DNA of 31,271 bases from Bacteroidales bacterium (GCA_030635465.1 DAOVYU010000001.1:1-31271), one strand, 5' to 3'; positions 6,581 to 25,060 are shown, counted from the stretch's first letter. Numbers and translations are program-made. The notes: generated by a model not told the origin, from the letters alone.

Positions 6581-6961
6581 TTATAACAGTAGTAGAATCC
6601 CTATTGCACCGACACCAACACCTTTCAGAAATCCATAAAAGCCTTTACGCCTACCTCGTTTCTTCTCATTGGTAATCATGACTTTTTGGTTATCGATAAC
6701 GGTATTTAACAGGGTTATTTGGTCGTCTTTTAAACTTAAATCTTGCTTCTGGATGCCGATTATTTCACCCTGGACACCAATAACAGAATCCTTGACAACA
6801 ATGCGTATATTTAGAATTTTATTGTTCTCAATCGCTTCATTTCCACGTGTTATTTTAGCAAAAATACTGTCCCGTTGGGTTTCAGTTATCAATCGCCCTT
6901 GTGAATATATCCCACTTGTCGTCAGAATTAGCAGTATTATAATCAGTTTTAAGTTTTTCAT
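6581..6961 (-). CDS. Spanin-like partner: SPI signal peptide, coiled coil and C-terminal TM
   Basis: MKNLKLIIILLILTTSGIYS|Q, heptad-like middle, C-terminal GFYGFLKGVGVGAIGILLLL; no Cys. Confidence 0.5.
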   Translation of the reverse strand: MKNLKLIIILLILTTSGIYSQGRLITETQRDSIFAKITRGNEAIENNKILNIRIVVKDSVIGVQGEIIGIQKQDLSLKDDQITLLNTVIDNQKVMITNEKKRGRRKGFYGFLKGVGVGAIGILLLL

Positions 6962-7265: not shown

Positions 7266-7588
7266 TTTGTTTTCTTGTGATCTTCTATTCTGTCAACCCG
7301 TTCTTTAAGTGCATCTAATTCAACATCGTGTTCAGCTCTCGGCACAAATGTTTCTATTTTTTTACTTAGAGGCATATGTACCCCTACATCATCTACGTGT
7401 TTATTCAATATAATCCAATCTGCATCGGTTTTCATAACTGCGTTTTTCTGTAATGCTTCTATATTATCATCTGTTTTTTGTTTCCAAAACAGACCATTCG
7501 CCCCTATTGTCAGTAACAAAATTAAATTTGCCAATCCAACATACTTAATAAAATTATTTTTAAAATATACTTGGGCTGATTCTTTCAT
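7262..7588 (-). CDS. Single-TM lysis-cassette membrane protein
   Basis: TM YVGLANLILLLTIGANGLFW with a C-terminal short coiled coil; ATGA-type overlap with the downstream gene. Confidence 0.6.
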   Translation of the reverse strand: MKESAQVYFKNNFIKYVGLANLILLLTIGANGLFWKQKTDDNIEALQKNAVMKTDADWIILNKHVDDVGVHMPLSKKIETFVPRAEHDVELDALKERVDRIEDHKKTK

Positions 7589-7989
7589 AAATTCTTATAT
7601 TCATGTTTAGCATTAAATGAAGGGCAATATTTCTGAACACCCGCAAAATCCCGATGGCCTAAAACCTTTGCTTTTCTGAATATTCTTTTAAGAGTTGCCA
7701 CTAAATAAACAAGCGATGCTTTTTGTTGTGTCGTACGTGTATCTAAACCGCCTTTTCCTCCAATGTAACACACTCCTACACTGTTTTGGTTGTGACCCTT
7801 GACATGAGCCCCAGCAGTGTTTAAATCACGCCCTAATTGAATCGTACCGTCTAATAAAATAACGTAGTGATAACCCACATCTTTCCAGTTATTTTCTTCA
7901 ATATGCCATTTACGAATATCATCAAGATCAAAATGCACATCCTTTGGGGTGTCCGCACAATGAATTACTATTTGATTTATTGTTCTCAT
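7585..7989 (-). CDS. Endolysin, N-acetylmuramoyl-L-alanine amidase (Amidase_2, T7 gp3.5-like)
   Basis: IVIHCA, GYHY, GAHVKGHN..SVGVCYIGG, GHRD and CPSF zinc-amidase motifs. Confidence 0.95.
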   Translation of the reverse strand: MRTINQIVIHCADTPKDVHFDLDDIRKWHIEENNWKDVGYHYVILLDGTIQLGRDLNTAGAHVKGHNQNSVGVCYIGGKGGLDTRTTQQKASLVYLVATLKRIFRKAKVLGHRDFAGVQKYCPSFNAKHEYKNL

Positions 7990-8841: not shown

Positions 8842-9360
8842 TTAAACTTTAGTTAAACTCTTTCTATTTGCGAATATCATACAGTTAAATATTTTGTTAT
8901 TTACAATAATCGTATGAGATCCAAAATGTGTATATTTTTTATCCTCAATCGTTTCTCTGTGGCCTTTACTCCTTAGATAAGCATCAAATGTTCGCTTTAT
9001 ACCACCTCGCCAGGTAGTTGTACATTCTCCAACTTTCTTAAAGCCATACTCCCGGATATCATCTGCTCTCTTTAAACCAAAATCATGACTTGCTTTATCC
9101 TTACTGACCATATATTTACAATGTTTAACCGCAAATTCAGTCAATATCCGATCTGAAATTACTTTCCCGGTATTGTCTCTTATTCTATGATCATTTACTC
9201 GATCATGAAATTCCTTATCGTTACCACTATATTCAATAGTTTCCGGGGTGTAAGGTTTTTGCTTGATAGTTTTTTTCTTTGGCTTTTTCTTATTTACCAA
9301 ATATCTTTGACCAAAAAATAACACCAAAGCTATTCCTACAACAATTATTATTGTTTTCAT
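8842..9360 (-). CDS. Membrane-anchored CAP/SCP-domain protein
   Basis: N-terminal TM; VN.HR, A..H..YM, SH, VGE, S.GHR..I and YTH.G CAP motifs. Confidence 0.85.
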   Translation of the reverse strand: MKTIIIVVGIALVLFFGQRYLVNKKKPKKKTIKQKPYTPETIEYSGNDKEFHDRVNDHRIRDNTGKVISDRILTEFAVKHCKYMVSKDKASHDFGLKRADDIREYGFKKVGECTTTWRGGIKRTFDAYLRSKGHRETIEDKKYTHFGSHTIIVNNKIFNCMIFANRKSLTKV

Positions 9361-9689
9361 GATTTATCAATTTTTTGTTTGATTTTTTTCTTGATGAAAA
9401 ACATTACAGTTGAGGGTGCATAACCTGTAATTATGTAAACAACATGCCCATTAATTTCAAACCCTGTAAGCTTTATTAATATCGGCAATAAAAACATCAA
9501 TCCAATTGCTAAAAAAATTGCAAGAAACAATCTTTGAGCATCCTTTTGAGTGAATGTTACCCCAATGAAGGAAAAATATATAGTTCCTCCTTTTTCTTGT
9601 TTGCCTACAAAAGCATTTTGAAATTCAGCAATTAAAAATCCCAAAAGAACCAATCCTAAAACCGTTAGTATCTGTAAAATAGTTTCCAT
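9357..9689 (-). CDS. Three-TM holin-like protein
   Basis: Three hydrophobic segments and a basic C-terminus (KKKIKQKIDKS). Confidence 0.55.
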   Translation of the reverse strand: METILQILTVLGLVLLGFLIAEFQNAFVGKQEKGGTIYFSFIGVTFTQKDAQRLFLAIFLAIGLMFLLPILIKLTGFEINGHVVYIITGYAPSTVMFFIKKKIKQKIDKS

Positions 9690-9705: not shown

Positions 9706-10308
9706 TTAATAATTTTCGTTAATATAATCATTTATAATTTGTTTTGCCTTGTCTAATATAGCCAACATCTTTGTATTTGTAGGCGGTGTAATCACATCTA
9801 ATCGACTTTTAGCAACTTTCCATAGTCCTAGTTCCAAAGGTAATAAAGCGTCAAATAACGTGTTGCTAATGCCCTCAAATTGGTTATTCGTTAGATTCCC
9901 GGAATCATATTCACGCATGACCCTATCCCAAATACGTTTATTCCATAACTGGCCATCTGATTTATAATCAAGTAATTTATTAGCAGAATTATCATTATCT
10001 AATTGGGTTTGATCGTAAGCATCAATTTCAGCTTGTGTAAAGTCTTTAATTGCATAAGTGAACACATCATTAACAGTATCCATATAAATAGTGTCACGCT
10101 TTTGATATTGAGTCAAATTGGGTTGTACAATATCCCTAAAACCAAGCGCATACAAATCGCTTTCAGTACTCGCTCTAAAATTGATTGTGTTATTCCAAAC
10201 TTTAGGAAGTGTGTTAAAAACTCTGATTTGTCCATTTATCTCAATGGCTTTCTGTCCGAATGCAATACCCGAAATCAGTAATGCAATTATTAAAAGTAGT
10301 TTTTTCAT
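9706..10308 (-). CDS. Signal-peptide protein with tail-fibre-assembly-chaperone-like N-domain (start revised from 10329)
   Basis: MKKLLLIIALLISGIAFG|Q; 'LGFRDIVQP...DVFTYAIKDFTQAEID'; ATG at 10308 leaves a 10-nt gap after the upstream stop. Confidence 0.65.
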   Translation of the reverse strand: MKKLLLIIALLISGIAFGQKAIEINGQIRVFNTLPKVWNNTINFRASTESDLYALGFRDIVQPNLTQYQKRDTIYMDTVNDVFTYAIKDFTQAEIDAYDQTQLDNDNSANKLLDYKSDGQLWNKRIWDRVMREYDSGNLTNNQFEGISNTLFDALLPLELGLWKVAKSRLDVITPPTNTKMLAILDKAKQIINDYINENY

Positions 10309-10318
10309 TTTATTTATT

Positions 10319-11200
10319 TTAAAGTCCATATTGATGCACTAAATCTATTGAAAATGATGTTGTATAAATTTTTGTACCATCAGGTTTAACATCCATTCCT
10401 CTCGGATTATTAGCTTCACTAGAAATGTCTAATAATTTAGAATCATAAGTCTTACTTGTAATATCCCACGGTGTAGATAATATCCATTGTTCCACGGCTT
10501 CAGTACTATTCATAATCACCCAAAATTTTAACCCTGTCGGTGAAATAGCACAATCAAAAGGGGTATCACCTGGGCTATCTGCCCACGCCCCACTATTTGA
10601 AGTTGATGATAAATCACTTATATCATACGGGGTGCCTGTTGAATGTCTATAAATTAAATTTGCGCTTGTGCCTGTCAAATATACATCAAGGCCACCATTA
10701 CCCCAAAACATCCCATACATCCATGTAACCCCGTGAGAATAACTTACACTATCATAAGTAGCTGTATCTAAATCTCCTGGTGTTGAACATGAAAATTGAT
10801 ATAATGTCGTCTGTGTAGCAAGTATAACATTAGAACCTCCATTATACCATGTTAAACTCGTAAATGCTGAAGCTCCGGTTATCGTTATTTCAGCATTATA
10901 GGTAACAGTTCCTAAATCATAATCGACAGTTGGTAAATTCTCATAGATTATTGCTCCACCGTTTTTAATTGTATTGAGTATCGATCCGTCAGGATTCCAT
11001 CTTGCACCAAATGGAGCCGTATTTGGACTTGTAGCAAATGATTTACTATCATAACTGAATAAATCAATATCAGGCCATTCAGTAACGCCATCTACTACTT
11101 GAGGTAATATTTTATTCCCTAAAACTTGTGAGTAACTTGTAAATGAAATTGACGTTATCAGTAATAACGATAATAATATATTTCTGAAAAGTGTTTTCAT
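10319..11200 (-). CDS. Signal-peptide beta-propeller protein (adhesin-like)
   Basis: MKTLFRNILLSLLLITSISFTSYS|Q; repeated blades (.PDG..., TPGDLDTATY, TPYDIS, TPWDITSKTY). Confidence 0.75.
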   Translation of the reverse strand: MKTLFRNILLSLLLITSISFTSYSQVLGNKILPQVVDGVTEWPDIDLFSYDSKSFATSPNTAPFGARWNPDGSILNTIKNGGAIIYENLPTVDYDLGTVTYNAEITITGASAFTSLTWYNGGSNVILATQTTLYQFSCSTPGDLDTATYDSVSYSHGVTWMYGMFWGNGGLDVYLTGTSANLIYRHSTGTPYDISDLSSTSNSGAWADSPGDTPFDCAISPTGLKFWVIMNSTEAVEQWILSTPWDITSKTYDSKLLDISSEANNPRGMDVKPDGTKIYTTSFSIDLVHQYGL

Positions 11201-11204
11201 AATC

Positions 11205-13619
11205 TTAATAGTTTATTAGTCCGGCCACGAATGTCGGAGTTGCCGAATCATGACAATATATTTGAATTACATTGGTTTTTGTGCCATCATAAGCACTCAG
11301 ATCACCTTTTACACCTGTTGGTAAAGTCAATGTATAGTCCCCGTCAATGATTAAACTGATTGTTTTGCCCTCCTGTACATCTGAGAATGTTAATGTGGTA
11401 TTTGCAACTAAGGTCTTTTCGAATTGTATTCCTAAATCCCAATCTACAACTGTACCAGATAAAGCAGAAGTTGCTTTTAATTCTGTTTTCAGTTCAGCAA
11501 CCCCAACGGCAAGAGCCTGCCATATTAACCCGGTAGTTTCTCCTGAAGCAGCAGTTAATATATAATCATTTGTGCCAACTGGCAAACGTGCATCAACAGT
11601 GCTGTATGTAAATAAGTCCCCTTTTGTTGTTAAAGGACTTGAAAATATATCACTTGTAAATGCTAATGTTCCGCTTCCATCCTGGAATGTATATGTCCTA
11701 TCTGCTGTATTTGTATTTGTAAATAACCCATTAAAAGTATCTGCAACATTTCTTAATTTGAAAGTCCCATCATCAAATGTTTTTGCTCCTGTGACGCTTT
11801 GTGCTCCATCCGTAAACATGACATTATCTACAAACTCAAGTGCATTTTCAGCACCGGCAACAGCAACAATTTTACCTCCTTGACTTGAATAAGATGAAGG
11901 TGTATCCGTATGAGCTGAAAATGTGGTGTGCCCACCGCCACCGCCACCACCACCGCCACCGGCAGATGTATTTGGAACTTGACCTCTTAAATCTTCAGTA
12001 TCATATAATTCCCAATCTGTACCATTGGCTTGTAGAACATAAGTGAATCTAGCTATTAGGAAACCTTTACCCTTAAAAGGTGCTGGTATATCATACACTG
12101 AATAATTTAATCCATCCGATACAGCATCATCAGGTGATGTTTTAGCATATGCATCTGTTGGTAAATTTATCATTAAATGGCTTGCTTCTCCTGTTTTATT
12201 TTGAACACCCCACAATACAAAACTAAAACTTGAATTAGCTAATGTAACACCTAAAGCATCTGATGTTTGAGCATTTAAATTAGTTACATCTACATATGGT
12301 GTTGTGAAGTGATTAGCAATATGTACATCATCGCTGACTTCGATATCCATTGCCGGAAATGTCTGTTTATGTAATTGATATATAACACCTGATGTATTTG
12401 AAACATAAACATTACTCGCTGTTGGAGAATCTACAGTACATGTTCCTACCGCCCCACTACTCCATGACGCAGGATCTTGTCTTAGACGTTCCCCAAGATG
12501 TAATATATGCCCATTGTCTCCTACTATTTTAATACGGTCATTCCAATTTCTATTTACTAAAGGGTCATCTTCTTGTACCTTTGAAGCACTTTGTACAAAT
12601 ACATCTGCTAATTTTATATGTTCTGCTACTGGAAATCCACTCGTGCTTACGGTCAATACTTTAGTAGATTCAGGAATGTAAATATAATTTATTTGTGGAT
12701 TTGTGTCAGTACCAGCGGTTAAAGAAATAGTTTCAGGTGGAGTACAATCTAAATTAGTGAATCCGTCACTAAATACCATTGTTAAATCACCGCCTCCTGT
12801 TTGCTCTAAAGATCCTGTAATAGTTGCACCGTCACTTGATACAGTAAAATCTACATTCTGTCTAAAAGACCCATCCCAGGCACTATTAAATGTATCTGCA
12901 ATTACATTTGTAAAATTAATAGCTACTTGCCCTTCTGTTGCATGAATTTTCAATGCTCCACCAATTAATAATGCATATGAAGGGAATTCAGGTCTTACAT
13001 CAGTAAAATCCCCAGCTACTGCATCTGATAGATATAAATCAGCCCCCGGTGCAATACCATCTGTATCAACATCACTGACCCGACCCATTCTAGTTCCCAT
13101 ACCTAAAGCTCCATTAGCCATAGTATTGGTTGCCATAAATAATGTGCCTTCACAAGTTGAGTGATCGTCTGCTTTGGCTAAAATAACAGTTGGTATTATT
13201 TCAGAACCTACAATCGTTGCTCCAGTTGGTTTTACTATTTTTCCATTTGGAATTTCAACACCAGTATCATTATATATGAGAAAATAAAACTCCTGTCCAA
13301 CTTGTAATATTGGCCCTAATCCTGTTGGAATATTCAATGTATGAAAATCAGTATTCCATGTTACGGATTCACCATCATTAAAAGTCACACTATCTAATGG
13401 GAAATCATTTATATCGGCTTTTAATTTATCAATAAAATCAGATGTTTTTATCCATTTCATTGCTTTATCGGACTCCATAACGAGTATGCTATCAATCTGC
13501 GTACCCTCTGTTATACCCGATAGTGTTGTAGGTAAACTAATATCATTTACTTGTGAAAATCCCGTAAACATTACGAGGATCATCGCTAAGGTTGTAAATA
13601 GTTTCTTAATTGTTTTCAT
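11205..13619 (-). CDS. Signal-peptide-bearing tail-fibre-like protein (804 aa)
   Basis: MKTIKKLFTTLAMILVMFTGFS|Q; fibre-type motifs WN..FHTLNI..G.ILQVGQE, TF...TDTPSSY..QGGKIVAV...ENALEF, AQSVTGAKTF, KGDLFTY....ARLPVGT; C-terminal adaptor-like domain. Confidence 0.7.
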   Translation of the reverse strand: MKTIKKLFTTLAMILVMFTGFSQVNDISLPTTLSGITEGTQIDSILVMESDKAMKWIKTSDFIDKLKADINDFPLDSVTFNDGESVTWNTDFHTLNIPTGLGPILQVGQEFYFLIYNDTGVEIPNGKIVKPTGATIVGSEIIPTVILAKADDHSTCEGTLFMATNTMANGALGMGTRMGRVSDVDTDGIAPGADLYLSDAVAGDFTDVRPEFPSYALLIGGALKIHATEGQVAINFTNVIADTFNSAWDGSFRQNVDFTVSSDGATITGSLEQTGGGDLTMVFSDGFTNLDCTPPETISLTAGTDTNPQINYIYIPESTKVLTVSTSGFPVAEHIKLADVFVQSASKVQEDDPLVNRNWNDRIKIVGDNGHILHLGERLRQDPASWSSGAVGTCTVDSPTASNVYVSNTSGVIYQLHKQTFPAMDIEVSDDVHIANHFTTPYVDVTNLNAQTSDALGVTLANSSFSFVLWGVQNKTGEASHLMINLPTDAYAKTSPDDAVSDGLNYSVYDIPAPFKGKGFLIARFTYVLQANGTDWELYDTEDLRGQVPNTSAGGGGGGGGGGHTTFSAHTDTPSSYSSQGGKIVAVAGAENALEFVDNVMFTDGAQSVTGAKTFDDGTFKLRNVADTFNGLFTNTNTADRTYTFQDGSGTLAFTSDIFSSPLTTKGDLFTYSTVDARLPVGTNDYILTAASGETTGLIWQALAVGVAELKTELKATSALSGTVVDWDLGIQFEKTLVANTTLTFSDVQEGKTISLIIDGDYTLTLPTGVKGDLSAYDGTKTNVIQIYCHDSATPTFVAGLINY
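11931..11960 (-). repeat. Ten tandem Gly codons (GGN)10
   Basis: Plus strand ccc acc gcc acc gcc acc acc acc gcc acc, encoding G10 in the 804-aa protein. Confidence 0.95.
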
Positions 13620-17217: not shown

Positions 17218-17607
17218 TTATTTGATTTCTATTGTTGATAATTTACCATCATTGCCGATGATCACAGCGTAATCTTTAGTCCCATCAGGGGTTTTTACTA
17301 TCCCTACAGTACTATGAGATTGTAAATACACATTTACTTTGTCTTGTTTGGTTTTAATGTCTGCTTTTTCTGTTTTTTCCTGAGTGCTTAAATCCCTGAA
17401 TCTTTGTACTTTATAAATCTTTACATCGTCATCTGTTAAAGGAATTAACTCTTGATCTTCTGTAATTACAGGTACCTCAACATCCCAGTAACCTTCTTGA
17501 TTCCATAAATGTTCCATCGTTAAAAGATTAACCGATGTTTTACCAATCAAATGTCTTGTTGGTATACTTGTACTACGCCATATTTCGTTTTCTTTTTTTA
17601 CTATCAT
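17218..17607 (-). CDS. Tail-fibre-assembly-chaperone-like protein (129 aa)
   Basis: EGYWDVEVP motif resembles LGFRDIVQP of 9706-10308; C-terminal KTPDGTKDYAVIIGNDGKLST. Confidence 0.5.
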   Translation of the reverse strand: MIVKKENEIWRSTSIPTRHLIGKTSVNLLTMEHLWNQEGYWDVEVPVITEDQELIPLTDDDVKIYKVQRFRDLSTQEKTEKADIKTKQDKVNVYLQSHSTVGIVKTPDGTKDYAVIIGNDGKLSTIEIK

Positions 17608-18356
17608 AATCCAAATCTTGTTTTATAAAAATCGAAGTTTTGTTGCACTTCAGTTACATTAAATTCTTTATTGTCGTAAAAATTAAATATTGGTAATTTA
17701 CCATGTAGCACCTGACCGCCATTTAAACTGGCATTTGTATTTACTTGGCTAGTACCTCCAAAAGCAATACTATTAGTTTTTAATGTTTTATTAATATTAT
17801 TTACATATAGCTTAAAATTAGGTACACTTATTGCTGAACCTCCATTATAAGTAAATACGACCTGATACCAATTCCCCGAAGCAAAAGTACTATCATCGGT
17901 ATTCATATTAACCCATGAACCAAATTCAGTACCCGACCCAAATACAATATTATTAATGCCATAATTTACGTGTGATTGCGAAAGAAAACAAATATAAGAA
18001 AATGATGTATTCGTTTTAATCTCAAATAATGCAGGAAACCCCACAAATGTATCAAGATAAAACCATGTTTCTATTGTGAATTTAGTACTTAATGTTATGG
18101 AATAACCTGTATTCCCTAATACATCATCGTTGTTACCATCAAATGTCAATACTCCACCATTAGCAGCACTAAAGCCAACACCATTCCTTAATGTAGCATC
18201 GTAATTATTTGCAGTTAAATCAAACCAATTAGTACCACTCCCAGGATAGCTTGCAGCATTACCCGAATCAAGATTAACAGTTGCCCCTGCAACAATAACA
18301 GCTCCGTTGCCTTTTTTCTTTAACCATAATTTTTTCTTTCCTATTATATTTTTCAT
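17604..18356 (-). CDS. LamG / concanavalin-A-like lectin-domain adhesin
   Basis: LDSGNAASYPGSGTNWFDL...ATL.NG, LTFDG.ND, FTIETW, NWYQVVFTY, KLYVN, EVQQNF. Confidence 0.85.
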   Translation of the reverse strand: MKNIIGKKKLWLKKKGNGAVIVAGATVNLDSGNAASYPGSGTNWFDLTANNYDATLRNGVGFSAANGGVLTFDGNNDDVLGNTGYSITLSTKFTIETWFYLDTFVGFPALFEIKTNTSFSYICFLSQSHVNYGINNIVFGSGTEFGSWVNMNTDDSTFASGNWYQVVFTYNGGSAISVPNFKLYVNNINKTLKTNSIAFGGTSQVNTNASLNGGQVLHGKLPIFNFYDNKEFNVTEVQQNFDFYKTRFGL

Positions 18357-18889
18357 GTTGCAAGATTTTCGTTAGCAAATAAAACTGACTCACTTCCACT
18401 TGCTGAATTTTTAATAGATGCAATAATATGATTTGTAACTGCACCACTATAAGATTCTGAACTTGGAGTTTCCTCCCAATCAGGAGTGTTGAATGTTGGC
18501 ACAAAACTTCCGTCTAAATATATTTCGATAGTATTAGATTTACCCTCTACAAATCCTATATCTGAAAATACTGTATTAGCTGTCATTGTTAATATAAATA
18601 CTGCACCTAATTTACTCCAATCAATATCATAAGTGCCTGATACGTTAGCTATGATTATTTCAGAACCTTCTGCTATTTTATTATCAACATATTTTTTAGT
18701 TGCTGGTTCATAATCTTCTGTTGGTGTAAATGTTTCCGTTTGATCTTTTTGAAGTACATTTCCTGCTAACGCATTGTGCTTGGTTTTGATTTCAGTCACA
18801 TCAACAGCCCTAATTGTCTTTACTATTGGTAAACCCGATTCTTTTGCCTTTACTTTATTGTCGAATGTTATTAAATTACTTACTGCCAT
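18353..18889 (-). CDS. Short tail-fibre adaptor protein
   Basis: PATKKYVD fibre motif; C-domain IDWS....FILTMTANTVFS...EGK..I...DG. Confidence 0.65.
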   Translation of the reverse strand: MAVSNLITFDNKVKAKESGLPIVKTIRAVDVTEIKTKHNALAGNVLQKDQTETFTPTEDYEPATKKYVDNKIAEGSEIIIANVSGTYDIDWSKLGAVFILTMTANTVFSDIGFVEGKSNTIEIYLDGSFVPTFNTPDWEETPSSESYSGAVTNHIIASIKNSASGSESVLFANENLAT

Positions 18890-18892
18890 ATC

Positions 18893-21208
18893 TTAGTATA
18901 ATTCATTATCTAATACGTTATCCAATCCTTTTGATACATCTACAATACCAATAGGTTTTATCGTTTCACTGAGCGGTAAATTCGCTCTTCTTAATTTCCA
19001 TTTACCAGTTTCTTCAACTACTAAATTGTCAAAAAATCCTTTTTCTATTAGCCCATTCTCATTTTTAAATTCAATGATGCCTTGCAGATTTGGGATCTCT
19101 TTCCCTTGAACTATTGTTTTACCTTTAATCAGTTGCTTTAGATCATAGTCTACAGGAAACTCAAATTCTACATATTGATTTGTAAAAAGAGCAGTATCAA
19201 ATTGATCATTCTTAATATCTCCCGATTCATCAAATAATACCCCGTTTTGAATAGCTTTTAGTTTGTCATTTGCGCTCGATCCCCCATACCTGACAAATTC
19301 GTATGGGTACCGTATAAAGCTTGAAGAAATAACCGACCCGTGATTGCGTAGCATTTGGGTTTGTGTCAATCTTAAATTAGTAGCACTATCCGGACTATAG
19401 ATACCCGTTGGCTGTTCATCAAAGTCATCTTGCCAAAAACGTTCTTCAAATACCCCTGTATCTGGGTCACTTCGTTTTGCGTCTTTTACAAATATTTTCT
19501 TATCCCGTTTGGTATCAGTGGTACCAAATCCTGACTTCTGTTTTCGCCTGGTTAATTCTTCACCTAATGAATCCCGTCCATATTTACAAATTATTTCATA
19601 AGTGTTTTGTAGAATGTCCAGACATGTTGCAAAAGAACTTTTACCATTGTACTCATCAAGACCCATTACTTCATCATATTCTTCACCCTGTTGAGAACCT
19701 ACATCGACAGTCGAATAATATTGGTCAACTATTTTAGTTCTGTTTACATTTTTAACTTTAACATACTCAAAAACACCATTCTCATTGATTGTCCCCAAAC
19801 GTATAGTAGTATTCCGATTATAGAAATATGATTTTTTCTCAACAATAACCTTTTCAATCCCAACCCTTTTTTCAATTCCATAACCTAAATTTTTAAGGGC
19901 TGTATATGATTTTATGTAATCATTCCATGAAGTAGTTATTCCTTTATAACGTTCATCGCCTTGAGCAAATCCACGAATCCAGAATCCATGATAAGCAGGT
20001 ATTAATGATGAATCACCATCTGCATCATAACCGATATCTGTTCTTCCAAATTCATCGGATATCATCAAATCCTCTTCATCAGTGATTATCTCAAGTATTC
20101 TATTACCCATTTCAAAAGGTAGTAAACAGTTCGTTTGAGTAGCATCTATATTGCTGTCTTGCTGTACATCAATACTACATTCCACATTATTGAAATTCAC
20201 TTTTAAATCGCCATCATAATCAATAAATAAAATGGTGCCTCCAAATTTTGCTTGCCCATACCATCGTAATGATAAACTTTCCCCTGCCTGAACATACACT
20301 AAACTTGTCCACGTAAAACTAATTACATGATTATTCATATTATAAGGGTTTGGTACAGTATATAAAGTTTGTTCACTTACATGAGTAAAATTTAAACCAT
20401 CTCCAAATTTAACTAGATCGACTCTCATAATAGCATCCCTTAAATCATCTACCTTTATAACTTCAATAGTCGCTGTCATTGAAATAGTAAGATTTATTAT
20501 TTTAGTTATATCATTATTTTTATAAAACATTGTACTGGCAGAACCAACACCGACATCTGTGGTAAAAATATTCTTAAATGTAGATGTAATTCTTTCATCA
20601 GATGAATATGTTATTGTAGTCGGTACTCCCAATGATCCAAATCTTGTATTCCCACCTTGAAAATTCATTCTGAAAGCATCACTGTTACGATTGGCATCGG
20701 TAGTTTCTAGCAATGATTGTAAAAATATTTTTCTTCCGGATAATGCTAACCTTTTTAACACCAAAGGATCCATTGCATTACCATTCAAAGTCGTCAATCT
20801 CTCCAATTCTATTTGTTGGTTTAACCTTGACTTCATTACTTGCCCTATCCCACTTATATTAAGTTTTAGAGTCACATAAGTTTCAGCTATTTCCAGGGTA
20901 CTAAAATCCAAAAATCCTTCCTCATCACGTTCCCAATCTCTTGTTTCGGGATTACGAATATCGATCAGTAAGCGTAATCTCGCTTTAATATCATAATACT
21001 CATCAATCAATAAAATGAAAGCCTTGGCATTACCCACAAATTTTATCTCACGGCTTTGATTGAAAACAATTCCATCACTTTTTTTATGCCTGGAATACTC
21101 AAATCTAATCACATCATATTCTACCGGCTCATCTATAACCAAAGGAGTGTATGCGTTATGTTGTAACGTAAATCTGTGAGTATCGGTATATTCTAATAAT
21201 AAACTCAT
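18893..21208 (-). CDS. Tail tip / baseplate-hub-type protein (771 aa)
   Basis: Directly after the TMP; size and composition only. Confidence 0.6.
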   Translation of the reverse strand: MSLLLEYTDTHRFTLQHNAYTPLVIDEPVEYDVIRFEYSRHKKSDGIVFNQSREIKFVGNAKAFILLIDEYYDIKARLRLLIDIRNPETRDWERDEEGFLDFSTLEIAETYVTLKLNISGIGQVMKSRLNQQIELERLTTLNGNAMDPLVLKRLALSGRKIFLQSLLETTDANRNSDAFRMNFQGGNTRFGSLGVPTTITYSSDERITSTFKNIFTTDVGVGSASTMFYKNNDITKIINLTISMTATIEVIKVDDLRDAIMRVDLVKFGDGLNFTHVSEQTLYTVPNPYNMNNHVISFTWTSLVYVQAGESLSLRWYGQAKFGGTILFIDYDGDLKVNFNNVECSIDVQQDSNIDATQTNCLLPFEMGNRILEIITDEEDLMISDEFGRTDIGYDADGDSSLIPAYHGFWIRGFAQGDERYKGITTSWNDYIKSYTALKNLGYGIEKRVGIEKVIVEKKSYFYNRNTTIRLGTINENGVFEYVKVKNVNRTKIVDQYYSTVDVGSQQGEEYDEVMGLDEYNGKSSFATCLDILQNTYEIICKYGRDSLGEELTRRKQKSGFGTTDTKRDKKIFVKDAKRSDPDTGVFEERFWQDDFDEQPTGIYSPDSATNLRLTQTQMLRNHGSVISSSFIRYPYEFVRYGGSSANDKLKAIQNGVLFDESGDIKNDQFDTALFTNQYVEFEFPVDYDLKQLIKGKTIVQGKEIPNLQGIIEFKNENGLIEKGFFDNLVVEETGKWKLRRANLPLSETIKPIGIVDVSKGLDNVLDNELY

Positions 21209-24200
21209 TTAATCCCAATTAAGATTGTTATATCTGAATAATTCATGATTTATATCCGGTGGTGGTGTCTGATTATTGGTAACACTCAATTTTAATTTTT
21301 CAATTGATGACCTTGTTTTTCTTTGCTCGTTAATCATTGACATATAAGCGTCAAACGTTTCTCCTGATTCATGTATGCTTAAATTCCTGTCCTGTATCTC
21401 GAAATTAGCCATGATTGCAGCCGTTTTTACTTTCTCATATTCATCAACACTGGTATGAACTGTAGTACCTCTTGCTAAATTCAATACAGATGGCCTGTCA
21501 ACTATGTAAGGATTCTTATTTGGTTCTTCAATAACTTCCGGTCTTTTTTCAGAAACATACGCAGGGCCACCTTTAAAACCTTCAACACCTTTTTCAAAAC
21601 GAGGTATTGGAGAAGCTAATACAGCAGCTATTTGTGCAGCACCCAAAGCTGATACAAATGCCGTCAATAATCCGGCTGATATGCCAAAATCAAACTTAGG
21701 TACCTGAGCCCAGATACTAACTATTGCTTGGGCTGTGTTAATTGCTATCTCAGTGGCAGCTATTGCCTTATTGAATTTAGCTTGGCGTACCTGTTCCTCC
21801 CGTTTTTTAGCTTCTAATTCAGTCCTTTTTTGTTCCTGTTCAGCACGTATTGCATCTTGCTGTACGGAATCACCTTCAGCTAATTCAAATTGTCGGTCAT
21901 AGAATTCATCATTAGCCTCAATTTGTTCATCTATTTTCCTGATATTAGAATCAAAAATACTTGATTGAATATCACCCAACACACTGAATGCAGCACCAAT
22001 ACCCTGCAATGCATTATCGAAACCATCAACAAAACCGGTTATTAATGTCTCTAAGTTCTGAGCATCCAAATTCAATGCAGAGGCAATAGTCTGTGATGCT
22101 TCTCTGATCTTTGTAGTTTTAAATGCTTGTAGTCGCTCTTCTGCTTCTCTTTGTGTCTCTAAATCAGCTAAAATACCATCTGTTACAGTCTGAGATAACG
22201 CTAATTTTAAAGCAGCTAATTGCTGTTCTAATGATGCACGCTGTTCGAATGACAGATTAGCACTTAACAACTCCGTTCGTACTACACCAATCTGTATTTT
22301 GATCGTTTCCTCGGCTGCCTTTCTTTTTATGTCAATGATATCCTGTTCGAATTTCGCTATAATTCTAGCTCTTTCTTCCTGAGTTAATTCCTCATTCGCT
22401 ATTTCTTCCTGGAATTGCTTTTCACGGGCTGTCAATAATTTGTTTAATGACTCAGTACGTACCGCATTTACATTATCAAGATTCTCTTTTAACTTATCGA
22501 ATTCACTCTTCAGGATTGCTTCAACTCTTTTCTGTGAATCTTTAACCAATTGTTCACGTGCTTCATTGAACTCTTCATCGATAAGCAATAATTCATCTTT
22601 GCCTCCTTTGGATGTTGCTATTGCTTGATCACGTTCTAAAACCAATAATTTATGACCTTCAAATACTGATCTTCGATGGAACTCCAATCGTTCATTTAGA
22701 GATAATTCCTCATTTTCTGAAATCTCTTCATTACTATCAATCTCATTTTTTACCCTAAATTTAGCTAATTCAAATGCATCTTTACGTAATTTCTTTTGTG
22801 CTTTTTCATTAATCTTTTTCTGCTCATTCGTTACTCTTTCCTCTTCATCAATAATAAAATCTGAATTTGTTTTTATAATTCCTCGTAATGTTTGTGCATT
22901 GATAATAGCTGATCGGATGAATCTTTTTTGACCATCCGTGAACTGTGCAGCAACATCAATCTGTTTATCAAGACTAGCAATATCATCACCCCTTGCCGAT
23001 GTCAATAACCCAATTGCAACACGTACTTTAGTTGCATTTACGCCCTGGTCCTCCAATGTTTTGCGTAAGTCATCCTCACCACGTTGTAAAGCATCTGAAG
23101 CTATATTCAACCGATCATAACCCTTAGCAAACTCACCAATATCTTTAGTCAATTTATTTACTCTTAATTCCGTTCTTTCAGCTTCATCATTGAACTCACT
23201 CAATTCTTCAGTAGCTTCTTTGGCACCCACCCCAAATGCCACAAATATAGCAGCAGCAGCAGATAATACACCTAATAAGATACCCACCGGACTTGTTTTA
23301 GTTACTATACTGAATAATTTCATCGCTTTGGTGGCTTTAGCTATTCCCCCGGCCAGTGCTATCTTAGCGAATTTCAATGCAATTATCGATGCCGTATATG
23401 CTTTGGTTAATAAAGAAACTGAAATCATAATCAATTTATACAACACGAAAGCCTTGACTACTCTAAATACAAAAGTAATAACCGGTCTAAGATTCTCAGC
23501 CAGCAATCGAATATTTTCTTTTAGTGTAACTGTAATATCATTCGCCTCATCCTCTTCCAAAATGATTCCCTGCCATGCTGATCTCAATAACTGTAATGCA
23601 CCATCCAGGGTGTCCAGTTCTTTATCTGCCATACTTTGAGCAGTTCCGGCAGACCTTTGCAGTGATTCATCCAATTCATTCGTTAAATCGATGTTATTTG
23701 ATAATACAGCAGCAGATACAGCAGCCCGTTTTCCAAATTCATCATTGGCAGCCGTTAATTTGTCTTGACTGTCTTTTATAGTTTGGAGTATCTTTCCATA
23801 ATCATCACCTTTTTTTGCAGCCTCAATAAATATATTCCTTAATGCTGTTGATGAAGTTGATACATCAATACCGGAATCCGATAGTTTACCCATCAATGCA
23901 ACTAATTTCGTAAATGGTATTCCGGCAGCATTTGCAGCACCAGCAACAATAGGTAATCCTTTTTCCAGTTTCTCAAAAGTCAATGCACTCTTAGCAGTTG
24001 CCAATGATAGTACATCTAATATTTCCGGAGCATCTATTGTACTAAAATCATCAAACGTATTAACAATAGCTCCAACCAAATTAGCTGTTTGGGCTAAGTT
24101 AGCATTCAAAGCAATAGACCCCTGAATTGTAGCTTCGGTAAGATCAATAATCTCGGATTGGCTGAACCCTAAACGGGCATAAGCAATTTGTAATTCTGTG

Positions 24201-25060
24201 ACCTCACTGGCTGTTTTAACAGTAATGGCACCCAAACGCTTGGAATCATCTGTAAGTCCCTGCATCTGGTCCCTATTGACCTGTAGGATGCCTGATAACG
24301 TTGCATTTTGCTTTTCAAAATCCTTCATTATCTTGATGCTGTTCTTGAATACCTGTATGAAGGCAAATATACCACCGGTAAATCCTAAAGCAGATGTAAA
24401 TGTTCTTAGTGCTCCGGTGGCTGCCCGTAATTGTTGTGGGTAATTACCTACATTCTCCTGGAATTGACCTGTAGCTGTACGTATTTTAATGACTGCTGCA
24501 CCATATTTTTTCATTGCAGCAGTTGATTGAATCAATTCGGATTGTTCTTTATCACTCAATCTATTCCCTAAAGCTCTTTTAGCATTTAAATTCTGTACGC
24601 TTTCCCTGGCACGGTTCCTTAATCCAGTCAAACGACCCATGGCCGTTAAGTTCTGTTTTAATTCCAAAGTACTTTTACGTAGGCTTTCACGCTCTGATAT
24701 CAATGCTCTACTCGTACCCTCAGTAACTAACAGGTTTCTTCTTTTTGTGGAGATTAGATTTTTCTCAATTTGATTTTGCTCTTTCCAAACTACCTGGTTA
24801 TTTTTTAATGCTTTGTTTTGGTTAGCTAGTGCGGTACTGGCTTTTTTACTCGTCTCTGTAATCTTTTTTTGTGTTTCAACGAATTGTTTTTGTGTAGTTA
24901 CATTTGCCAGTTGTTTGTAGACTTCGAATAAGGACAATGCAGATTTCTTCAATGCCTCATTAGCATCGATGGCCACCTTTACATTTTTAGCGTACTTCCC
25001 TCCCCACTTTAGGGCCTCATCGGTGATTACTTCTTTCCTGGTAATTGTTCCGCTTGCCAT
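21209..25060 (-). CDS. Tape measure protein (TP901-like core)
   Basis: 1283 aa, Ala-rich helical; ELQIAYARLGFSQSEI motif, hydrophobic central segment, long coiled coil. Confidence 0.95.
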   Translation of the reverse strand: MASGTITRKEVITDEALKWGGKYAKNVKVAIDANEALKKSALSLFEVYKQLANVTTQKQFVETQKKITETSKKASTALANQNKALKNNQVVWKEQNQIEKNLISTKRRNLLVTEGTSRALISERESLRKSTLELKQNLTAMGRLTGLRNRARESVQNLNAKRALGNRLSDKEQSELIQSTAAMKKYGAAVIKIRTATGQFQENVGNYPQQLRAATGALRTFTSALGFTGGIFAFIQVFKNSIKIMKDFEKQNATLSGILQVNRDQMQGLTDDSKRLGAITVKTASEVTELQIAYARLGFSQSEIIDLTEATIQGSIALNANLAQTANLVGAIVNTFDDFSTIDAPEILDVLSLATAKSALTFEKLEKGLPIVAGAANAAGIPFTKLVALMGKLSDSGIDVSTSSTALRNIFIEAAKKGDDYGKILQTIKDSQDKLTAANDEFGKRAAVSAAVLSNNIDLTNELDESLQRSAGTAQSMADKELDTLDGALQLLRSAWQGIILEEDEANDITVTLKENIRLLAENLRPVITFVFRVVKAFVLYKLIMISVSLLTKAYTASIIALKFAKIALAGGIAKATKAMKLFSIVTKTSPVGILLGVLSAAAAIFVAFGVGAKEATEELSEFNDEAERTELRVNKLTKDIGEFAKGYDRLNIASDALQRGEDDLRKTLEDQGVNATKVRVAIGLLTSARGDDIASLDKQIDVAAQFTDGQKRFIRSAIINAQTLRGIIKTNSDFIIDEEERVTNEQKKINEKAQKKLRKDAFELAKFRVKNEIDSNEEISENEELSLNERLEFHRRSVFEGHKLLVLERDQAIATSKGGKDELLLIDEEFNEAREQLVKDSQKRVEAILKSEFDKLKENLDNVNAVRTESLNKLLTAREKQFQEEIANEELTQEERARIIAKFEQDIIDIKRKAAEETIKIQIGVVRTELLSANLSFEQRASLEQQLAALKLALSQTVTDGILADLETQREAEERLQAFKTTKIREASQTIASALNLDAQNLETLITGFVDGFDNALQGIGAAFSVLGDIQSSIFDSNIRKIDEQIEANDEFYDRQFELAEGDSVQQDAIRAEQEQKRTELEAKKREEQVRQAKFNKAIAATEIAINTAQAIVSIWAQVPKFDFGISAGLLTAFVSALGAAQIAAVLASPIPRFEKGVEGFKGGPAYVSEKRPEVIEEPNKNPYIVDRPSVLNLARGTTVHTSVDEYEKVKTAAIMANFEIQDRNLSIHESGETFDAYMSMINEQRKTRSSIEKLKLSVTNNQTPPPDINHELFRYNNLNWD

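Follow-up and report, generated by a model that had tools for sequence, protein, structure and literature searches.

The window analyzed here is the whole of contig C363 (31,271 bp; DAOVYU010000001.1), which belongs to a metagenome-assembled genome (MAG) of 2.0 Mb that is 65% complete. It displays a siphophage gene order, and every convincing gene lies on the minus strand, to which all window coordinates below refer. Three consecutive genes, hereafter the triad or cassette, encode an 804-residue protein resembling tail fibers and receptor-binding proteins (RBPs) (P0001, 11205..13619), a 293-residue β-propeller adhesin (P0002, 10319..11200), and a 200-residue chaperone-like protein (P0003, 9706..10308). 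Each of the three products begins with a predicted signal peptide of the type handled by the Sec pathway and signal peptidase I (Sec/SPI). The block is ordered as the leaderless P0004 gene, the cassette, and then a holin-like gene with two transmembrane (TM) spans.

The P0001 N-terminus reads MKTIKKLFTTLAMILVMFTGFS followed by QVND, that of P0002 MKTLFRNILLSLLLITSISFTSYS followed by QVLG, and that of P0003 MKKLLLIIALLISGIAFG followed by QKAI, with the predicted cleavage site ahead of the glutamine. All three possess Lys or Arg in the n-region, an uncharged hydrophobic core of 12-14 residues, Gly, Ser, or Ala at position -3, Ser or Gly at -1, and Gln at +1. Leaders were called with a simple hand-written heuristic, a hydrophobicity scan, and comparative evidence. 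The N-terminal hydrophobicity of the triad is the highest among the large proteins of the window, the maximum over 11 residues reaching 2.46 in the predicted signal peptide of P0001 (residues 1-22, ending ...TGFS/Q, the slash marking the cleavage site; 13554..13619). The heuristic flags 8 of the 38 window open reading frames (ORFs), and Gln occurs at +1 in four of these, namely the triad and a 126-residue protein of the lysis region (6581-6961). Among these 38 ORFs it reports no such N-terminus for any head gene, nor for any tail gene that lies upstream of position 17604, and the remaining hydrophobic N-termini are confined to the downstream lysis cluster. Both the leader architecture and the Gln at +1 are those of the Sec/SPI substrates that obey the Q-rule in Bacteroidota (PMC5837995; PMC10653852). 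They are kept in homologs on at least nine independent metagenomic contigs, Gln at +1 being found in 9/9 leader-bearing fibers, in 19/20 leader-bearing P0003 homologs, and in all leader-bearing adhesins seen. This conservation, together with leaderless homologs that start at or near the cleavage sites, indicates at the sequence level that the leaders are real and beyond chance.

No lipobox Cys is located near the cleavage sites of the triad. Pfam and NCBIfam return no match in the triad to the C-terminal domains (CTDs) of the type IX secretion system (T9SS), either type A (PF18962/TIGR04183) or type B (PF13585/TIGR04131), and a six-frame search of the MAG that found many such domains elsewhere found none on C363. 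With neither signal present, T9SS or lipoprotein sorting of the triad is ruled out. The mature N-termini are likewise devoid of ATG, GTG, or TTG codons, which rules out cytoplasmic isoforms produced from internal starts. Export of the whole triad by Sec/SPI is thus highly probable. A preliminary description of this DNA had already pointed to three consecutive genes with SPI-type leaders and Gln at +1, which sequence, hydrophobicity scan, and conservation confirm, and to the lack of a lipobox Cys or a T9SS CTD, with which the searches above agree. It had also assigned the leaders to the Bacteroidota Q-rule type, in keeping with the Gln retained across leader-bearing relatives and with the Bacteroidota host, had expected no leaders in the genes at 17218-18889, as the hydrophobicity scan bears out, and had placed the block between the tail genes and the first holin-like gene, where the two-TM gene at 9357..9689 is indeed found.

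P0001 is a true tail-fiber/RBP homolog, by both sequence and fold. A protein search reports 329 homologs with a common region at residues ~75-600 and varied C-termini, many of which carry collar, S74, C1q, collagen, or gp9/10 tail-fiber Pfam domains, and tblastn returns annotated tail fiber proteins of Pseudomonas, Roseobacter, and Nitrincola phages. In the AlphaFold2 model (predicted local distance difference test, pLDDT, 79.6), residues 102-243 (12891..13316) adopt a β-tulip-like fold that VIA-align matches to 8qsy, 8hdt, 8saj, and 3gqh (Z 10.4-7.7), and which is reminiscent of the C-terminal fragment of phi29 gp12 and of capsid decoration proteins that form trimers (Foldseek probability 1.00). 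Residues 246-380 (12480..12884) form a domain of the siphophage RBP "shoulder" type, for which VIA-align reports the cyanophage A-1(L) tail fiber (Z 8.8, 24% identity) and the RBPs of the lactococcal phages p2 and 1358, Mtd, the HFTV1 tail fiber, and TssK (Z 6.5-5.5). A Gly run, GGGGGGGGGGG, follows the central domain (residues 553-563, 11931-11963), and a Gly-rich linker with a TTF..LTDTPS.Y motif is kept throughout the fiber family, with or without a leader. The C-terminus (residues 704-804, 11208..11510) folds into a small β domain, termed docking-type here on the basis of the model and of locus comparison. It shares 65% identity with the C-terminal half of a leaderless 205-residue protein of locus L010 and 54-84% identity with the C-termini of otherwise different fibers (L007, L011, L012, L014, and L002). 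Upstream of these domains, mature P0001 starts with a ~55-residue segment that has the length and pattern of the extreme N-terminus of leaderless fibers of the P0113 type. The fiber identity proposed earlier for the 804-residue protein is therefore borne out by the domains of its homologs, by tblastn, and by the shoulder fold.

Among the ~120 listed fiber homologs, nine carry a leader (P0001, P0006, P0007, P0008, P0009, P0012, P0019, P0020, and P0024), the rest exhibiting ordinary fiber N-termini. A single origin of the leader-bearing fibers is rejected, as the tree of the central domain needs at least four label changes. The central domain closest to that of P0001 (67% identity) belongs to the leaderless fiber P0010, and these fibers are therefore mosaics in which, judging from their sequences, a leader-plus-N-terminal module recombines with other fiber parts.

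The P0002 leader (residues 1-24, ...SYS/Q) is followed by VLGNKIL. P0002 itself returns no Pfam match at E<=0.1; its homologs, most of them leaderless, possess PF08450 SGL or PF10282 lactonase propeller domains, and comparison with viral propeller clusters yields an Atlas feature score of 0.97, both of which support the β-propeller label given in the preliminary description. The post-leader peptide of the adhesins, (V/I/L)LGNKIL, directly follows the initiator Met in the leaderless adhesin of L010 (MILGNKIL), and a peptide of this type is located within the first dozen residues of the leaderless L006 adhesin (MRKKKKMLIGNKQ). The leaderless adhesins hence start at Met1 (L010) or within ~6 residues (L006) of the predicted mature N-terminus, and residue 28 of a leader-bearing fibronectin III (fn3)/leucine-rich repeat (LRR) adhesin aligns to residue 6 of its leaderless counterpart. 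The N-terminal LGNKIL peptide probably docks on the P0001 C-terminal domain.

The P0003 ORF is open to position 10329 and would encode 207 residues from its first ATG. Because the homologs start at MKK, translation almost certainly begins at Met8 (10308), for a product of 200 residues. Its leader covers residues 1-18 (...AFG/Q). The first residue of leaderless P0003 homologs coincides with the predicted cleavage site (MKAININ... versus ...FG/QKAIEIN..., alignment A1), and Foldseek matches align from query residue 26-28, past the leader. A profile search against 1.84 billion representatives reports 438 clusters, with a leader in 20 of the 164 sampled. The AlphaFold2 model of P0003 (pLDDT 87.6) consists of a small β sheet and a helical bundle, and its fold neighbors in BFVD, the ESM Atlas, and AFDB are uncharacterized viral proteins and members of PF16778 Phage_tail_APC and DUF4376, with template modeling scores of 0.3-0.55 and probabilities up to 1.00 for the latter two. 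Searches of Pfam, PHROG, and NCBIfam return no family match for P0003, and fold searches of the PDB return generic helical matches only. The chaperone-like label that P0003 had received draws on its PF16778/DUF4376 fold neighbors and its gene placement; with no profile match and low template modeling scores, it is reasonable but weak.

The triad is one instance of a recurrent module made up of a fiber or adaptor with a C-terminal docking-type domain, an LGNKIL adhesin, and a chaperone-like protein of ~185 residues. At every locus with a docking-type domain, the following gene encodes an LGNK-type peptide at its very start or, in leader-bearing versions, behind the leader, and a P0003 homolog comes next wherever the contig reaches far enough. 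The P0003-type gene lies directly downstream of the fiber/adhesin genes in 9 of 10 loci, an 83-residue ORF standing between them in L003/L004. Complete leader-bearing triads are found at six loci (the window, L002, L003/L004, L011, L018, and L019), partial leader-bearing sets at contig ends at three (L007/L008, L012, and L014), and complete leaderless triads at two (L006 and L010); none of these 11 loci is of mixed leader status. The suggestion that the set is coordinately leader-bearing thus holds in the relatives of the window phage as well. The leaderless triads resemble that of the window in their docking domain (65% identity), LGNKIL-type adhesin, P0003 homolog (42-44% identity), gene order, and location in the tail-fiber region, but none of their proteins has a signal peptide, and their adhesins are LRR+fn3 and LamG proteins instead. 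Since leader status is always shared across the triad, the three proteins would act together in one compartment, and this shared targeting state is the strongest argument for it.

The adhesin domains of the module are varied. They are propellers in the window, L018, and L014, DUF285 domains in L003 and L019, a propeller-like region plus LamG in L011, LamG in L010, and fn3 in L012, of which the leaderless L006 homolog is an LRR plus fn3 protein. At the sequence level, the binding domain of the adhesin is freely swapped behind a conserved leader and LGNKIL peptide. L014 and L006 come from related-looking phages of a non-siphophage type, both with DUF6712, a head protease, and the fiber gene right after the neck genes. 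Despite this relatedness, the L014 set has leaders and the L006 triad has none. In L014, a separate leaderless protein of 159 residues with a fiber-anchor-like N-terminus (...TPNDGLGDPLR...) precedes the exported-type fiber. L010 is a 360-kb IMG/VR viral contig with 32% GC, in which a leaderless 893-residue homolog of the P0001 central domain adjoins the triad; the central and docking domains of that phage are therefore on separate proteins. Two more leader proteins with Gln at +1 (344 and 169 residues, L011:128-1673) are encoded in L011 upstream of the P0005 homolog, inside the tail module.

Directly upstream of P0001, P0004 (13630..14985) encodes a distal tail protein of 451 residues that is leaderless according to the hydrophobicity scan. 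Each of the six siphophage-type loci has, immediately before its leader-bearing fiber, a gene whose product ends in a shared domain of ~65 residues (P0004 residues 379-446), which BLAST and hidden Markov model (HMM) searches link to L003_448, L002_131, L013_135, L011_203, and L019_206. These proteins, of 131-451 residues, are encoded at L002:4176-4571, L013:8580-8987, L011:3756-4367, L019:6769-7389, and L003:8644-9990, and display the motif ...F.L.KH..N....LE.ND.I.GY....A.YLGGD.... Judging from the sequence and recurrence of the P0004-type C-terminal domain, the exported fiber may dock to the virion through it. The gp99 protein of Cellulophaga phage phi19:1 was considered as a further carrier of this domain, and the HMM gave no support.

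Farther upstream is a leaderless pair (17604..18889) comprising a docking-type protein of 178 residues (18353-18889) and a LamG adhesin of 250 residues (PF13385 Laminin_G_3, E 7.6e-8). The N-terminus of the latter is MKNIIGKKKL, in which IIGKKKL resembles LGNKIL. The 178-residue protein matches the L006 fiber C-terminus (E 1e-8) and, weakly, P0001 residues 704-797 (E 0.013). The genes at 17218-17607 (129 residues) and 17604-18356 were considered as paralogs of P0003 and P0002, respectively, and exhibit no significant similarity to them. What the pair and the triad have in common is therefore limited to a weakly similar docking-type domain and a LamG adhesin architecture. Because the same phage encodes this leaderless pair, export is not a general need of the adhesin system.

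Analysis with PHROGs assigns a tape-measure protein (21209-25060), a large "virion structural protein" (18893-21208), a second "virion structural protein" (P0005, 15225-17216), and an amidase endolysin (7585-7989), along with RecT and helicase genes near the low-coordinate end of the window. The cultured phages nearest by P0005 infect Tenacibaculum, Cellulophaga, Polaribacter, and Leeuwenhoekiella, and the six-frame search of the whole MAG reports 88 type-A T9SS CTDs above the cut-off, plus type-B CTDs. From the cultured relatives of P0005 and these 88 domains, the host is a marine member of the Bacteroidota, very probably of the Flavobacteriaceae. The membrane and lysis cluster opens with the holin-like gene (9357..9689; 110 residues, two hydrophobic spans), which also adjoins the triad in L011 and L013, and goes on to genes for an N-terminally anchored CAP-domain protein, further small membrane proteins, the amidase, and spanin-like products. 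The CAP/SCP-domain protein (8842-9360; PF00188, E 1e-4) lies amid holin-like genes, and comprises a hydrophobic N-terminal anchor reaching to FFG/Q and then a very basic linker; such a protein adjoins the triad in a related contig as well (L018:4396-4896). The 126-residue protein at 6581-6961 combines a Gln +1 leader (IYS/Q) with a C-terminal TM segment, and its gene overlaps that of an N-terminally anchored protein of 127 residues, the two resembling a spanin pair without a lipobox. Its O-glycosylation sequons number 2 versus 0.2 expected (p 0.013, on small numbers).

Two cultured phages carry leader-bearing proteins in the slot that the cassette occupies in the window. In phi19:1 (KC821607), the P0005 homolog gp98 is followed by a small protein, a TM peptide, gp101-gp104, and then membrane proteins. 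The four proteins gp101-gp104 all have leader-type N-termini (...INA/Q, ...VSA/Q, ...LNA/Q, and ...SFG/K), with Gln at +1 in three, and all four are annotated in GenBank as "structural protein" from experimental tandem mass spectrometry (MS/MS) proteomics, a statement on virions that we take from the GenBank note. Cellulophaga phage Nekkels_1 has the same layout, and two of the proteins concerned are annotated as pectate lyases. Both are related flavobacterial siphophages with consecutive leader-type proteins, but the proteins are four in number and include neither an LGNKIL adhesin nor a P0003-like gene. No paper was found on the leaders of the phi19:1 and Nekkels_1 proteins. By analogy, the phi19:1 annotation gives an empirical hint toward virion association. 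The closest isolate by P0005, and by its tail genes the closest cultured phage, is Tenacibaculum phage JQ. Its gene at the P0004 position, which has no detectable similarity to P0004, nearly adjoins the lysis genes.

We propose that the triad serves a marine siphophage of the Flavobacteriaceae type as a modular cassette for receptor binding, in which the fiber combines an N-terminal attachment-type segment, the β-tulip and RBP shoulder domains, the Gly run, and the C-terminal docking-type domain. The three proteins would very likely cross the inner membrane, be cleaved ahead of the Gln, which would cyclize to pyroglutamate, and fold together in the periplasm. More tentatively, the assembled accessory fiber would join otherwise complete virions once the holin lesions merge cytoplasm and periplasm, and it may then dock on the leaderless P0004. 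The addition of periplasm-matured accessory fibers to virions at lysis is plausible, at somewhat short of an even chance, and we favor it over an exported decoy or exclusion device. It had been listed as the first of three options in the preliminary description, and it gains indirectly from mature proteins that match leaderless virion-type counterparts in full and from the phi19:1 MS/MS annotation.

Several points weigh against this proposal. For P0001-P0003, cleavage, localization, and virion presence are predictions from sequence. The window phage also possesses leaderless RBP-type proteins, and gp101-gp104 of phi19:1 have no detectable sequence similarity to P0001-P0003. Mass spectrometry of a virion preparation may, moreover, reflect co-purifying periplasmic proteins or vesicles. 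The complex prediction for P0001 residues 690-804 with mature P0002 returned a score of 0.00, and carries no weight either way. The cassette is absent from JQ, and it is therefore dispensable for building such a tail. Lastly, neither sequons nor cysteines provided a reason for export. O-glycosylation was rejected as such a reason, the sequon D-(S/T)-(A/I/L/V/M/T) not being enriched (observed/expected 3/5.6, 2/2.0, and 2/0.8 for P0001, P0002, and P0003), as was disulfide formation, the leader-bearing fibers being as Cys-poor as the leaderless ones and mature P0003 being devoid of Cys.

The foremost alternative is that the exported fiber-adhesin complex is never on the virion, and serves in periplasmic interception of the receptor or its precursor, in exclusion, in masking, or, at lysis, as a decoy coating debris and so sparing progeny from loss. 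We deem this rather unlikely; its targets would be the receptor or its precursor, a T9SS cargo or a glycan in transit. The location of the cassette at the tail/lysis junction, a usual place of accessory genes, would suit such a role, as would its absence from JQ and the leaderless RBP-type set that the window phage owns (P0004, the 178-residue protein with the LamG adhesin, and P0005). Exported proteins that block receptors and are encoded beside RBP genes are also established, namely Llp of T5 and Cor of phi80 and N15. However, exclusion is known from small lipoproteins or membrane proteins rather than from a full fiber with an adhesin and a chaperone. Mature P0001-P0003 retain attachment-type N-termini, the positional analogs are annotated in phi19:1 virions, and with no lipobox or T9SS domain the cell surface and its exposed receptors would be out of reach. 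Masking or exclusion from inside the envelope, the second option of the preliminary description, belongs to this rival of attachment at lysis. A protective role in a lysogen is unlikely, since no prophage copies were found when the P0003 profile was run against 185,579 species-representative genomes; the family is represented in IMG/VR by two loci only. The third option, a surface adhesin of lysogens, is disfavored on the same ground and by the lack of a surface-sorting signal.

Alternatively, the fiber and propeller may bind or modify peptidoglycan, the outer membrane, or the capsule from inside, as a periplasmic egress factor aiding lysis and release together with the adjacent non-canonical lysis genes. 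The cassette is in the same orientation as, and adjacent to, the holin-like, CAP-domain, amidase, and spanin-like genes, two genes of the lysis cluster have Gln +1-type leaders or anchors as well, and the same-slot leader proteins of Nekkels_1 are annotated as pectate lyases. We nonetheless regard this role as improbable: no enzymatic domain was detected in P0001-P0003, and the leaderless triads sit at the tail-fiber gene position of other phages, for which reason the ancestral role would be host recognition and not lysis. It is very improbable that the hydrophobic N-termini stay uncleaved, whether as membrane anchors or as segments kept on a cytoplasmic virion fiber and acting in infection. 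The heuristic basis of the leader calls, the capacity of hydrophobic N-termini to be signal anchors, and the anchor-like N-terminus of the neighboring CAP protein all leave room for it. Yet a typical TM helix needs more than the 12-14 residues of these cores, nearly every homolog retains Gln at +1 and obeys the -3/-1 rule, and the first residues of the leaderless homologs coincide with the predicted cleavage sites or lie only a few positions away.

In the textbook account, tailed-phage assembly is entirely cytoplasmic, and the siphophage RBPs with a shoulder domain (p2, 1358, A-1(L), and Mtd) likewise assemble in the cytoplasm. Residues 246-380 of P0001 share their fold (Z 8.8-6.2), and P0001, too, is encoded distally in the tail module, but those RBPs, unlike P0001, have no signal peptide. 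T5 Llp and Cor resemble the triad in being phage-encoded, exported, and located beside receptor-binding genes, but they are small lipobox lipoproteins, not homologous to fibers and not accompanied by a chaperone, whereas the triad proteins comprise 804, 293, and 200 residues and have no lipobox Cys at +1. Phages of Porphyromonas gingivalis encode Q-rule proteins of unknown function (PMC10367356). Those proteins were not recognized as fiber modules, while the window possesses a whole fiber, adhesin, and chaperone set. No paper describing exported tail-fiber modules was found, and leader-bearing "structural proteins" already stand, uncommented, in the GenBank records of cultured flavobacterial phages. 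The window contributes the homologous leaderless twin of the whole module, the all-or-none rule, and the negative sequon result.

The finding is that of a complete receptor-binding module that has, as a whole, come under secretion signals of the host type. It bears on the reading of virion proteomes and "structural" annotations, and on fiber-gene calling in metagenomes. Direct tests are within reach, given the matched triads with and without leaders and the cultured Cellulophaga phages. Quite tentatively, we extend the proposal to some tailed phages of Bacteroidota, in which Sec would export a complete fiber-adhesin-chaperone set whose proteins, once processed to N-terminal pyroglutamate, would assemble in the periplasm and be added to finished virions only between holin triggering and outer-membrane rupture. 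If periplasmic maturation and attachment at lysis are true, they would constitute a new, compartment-separated and lysis-coupled final step of morphogenesis; if the recognition gear instead stays free inside the envelope, it would represent a new kind of exclusion or decoy. In either case, the cassette is relevant to host-range determination in marine flavobacterial phages, which are abundant.

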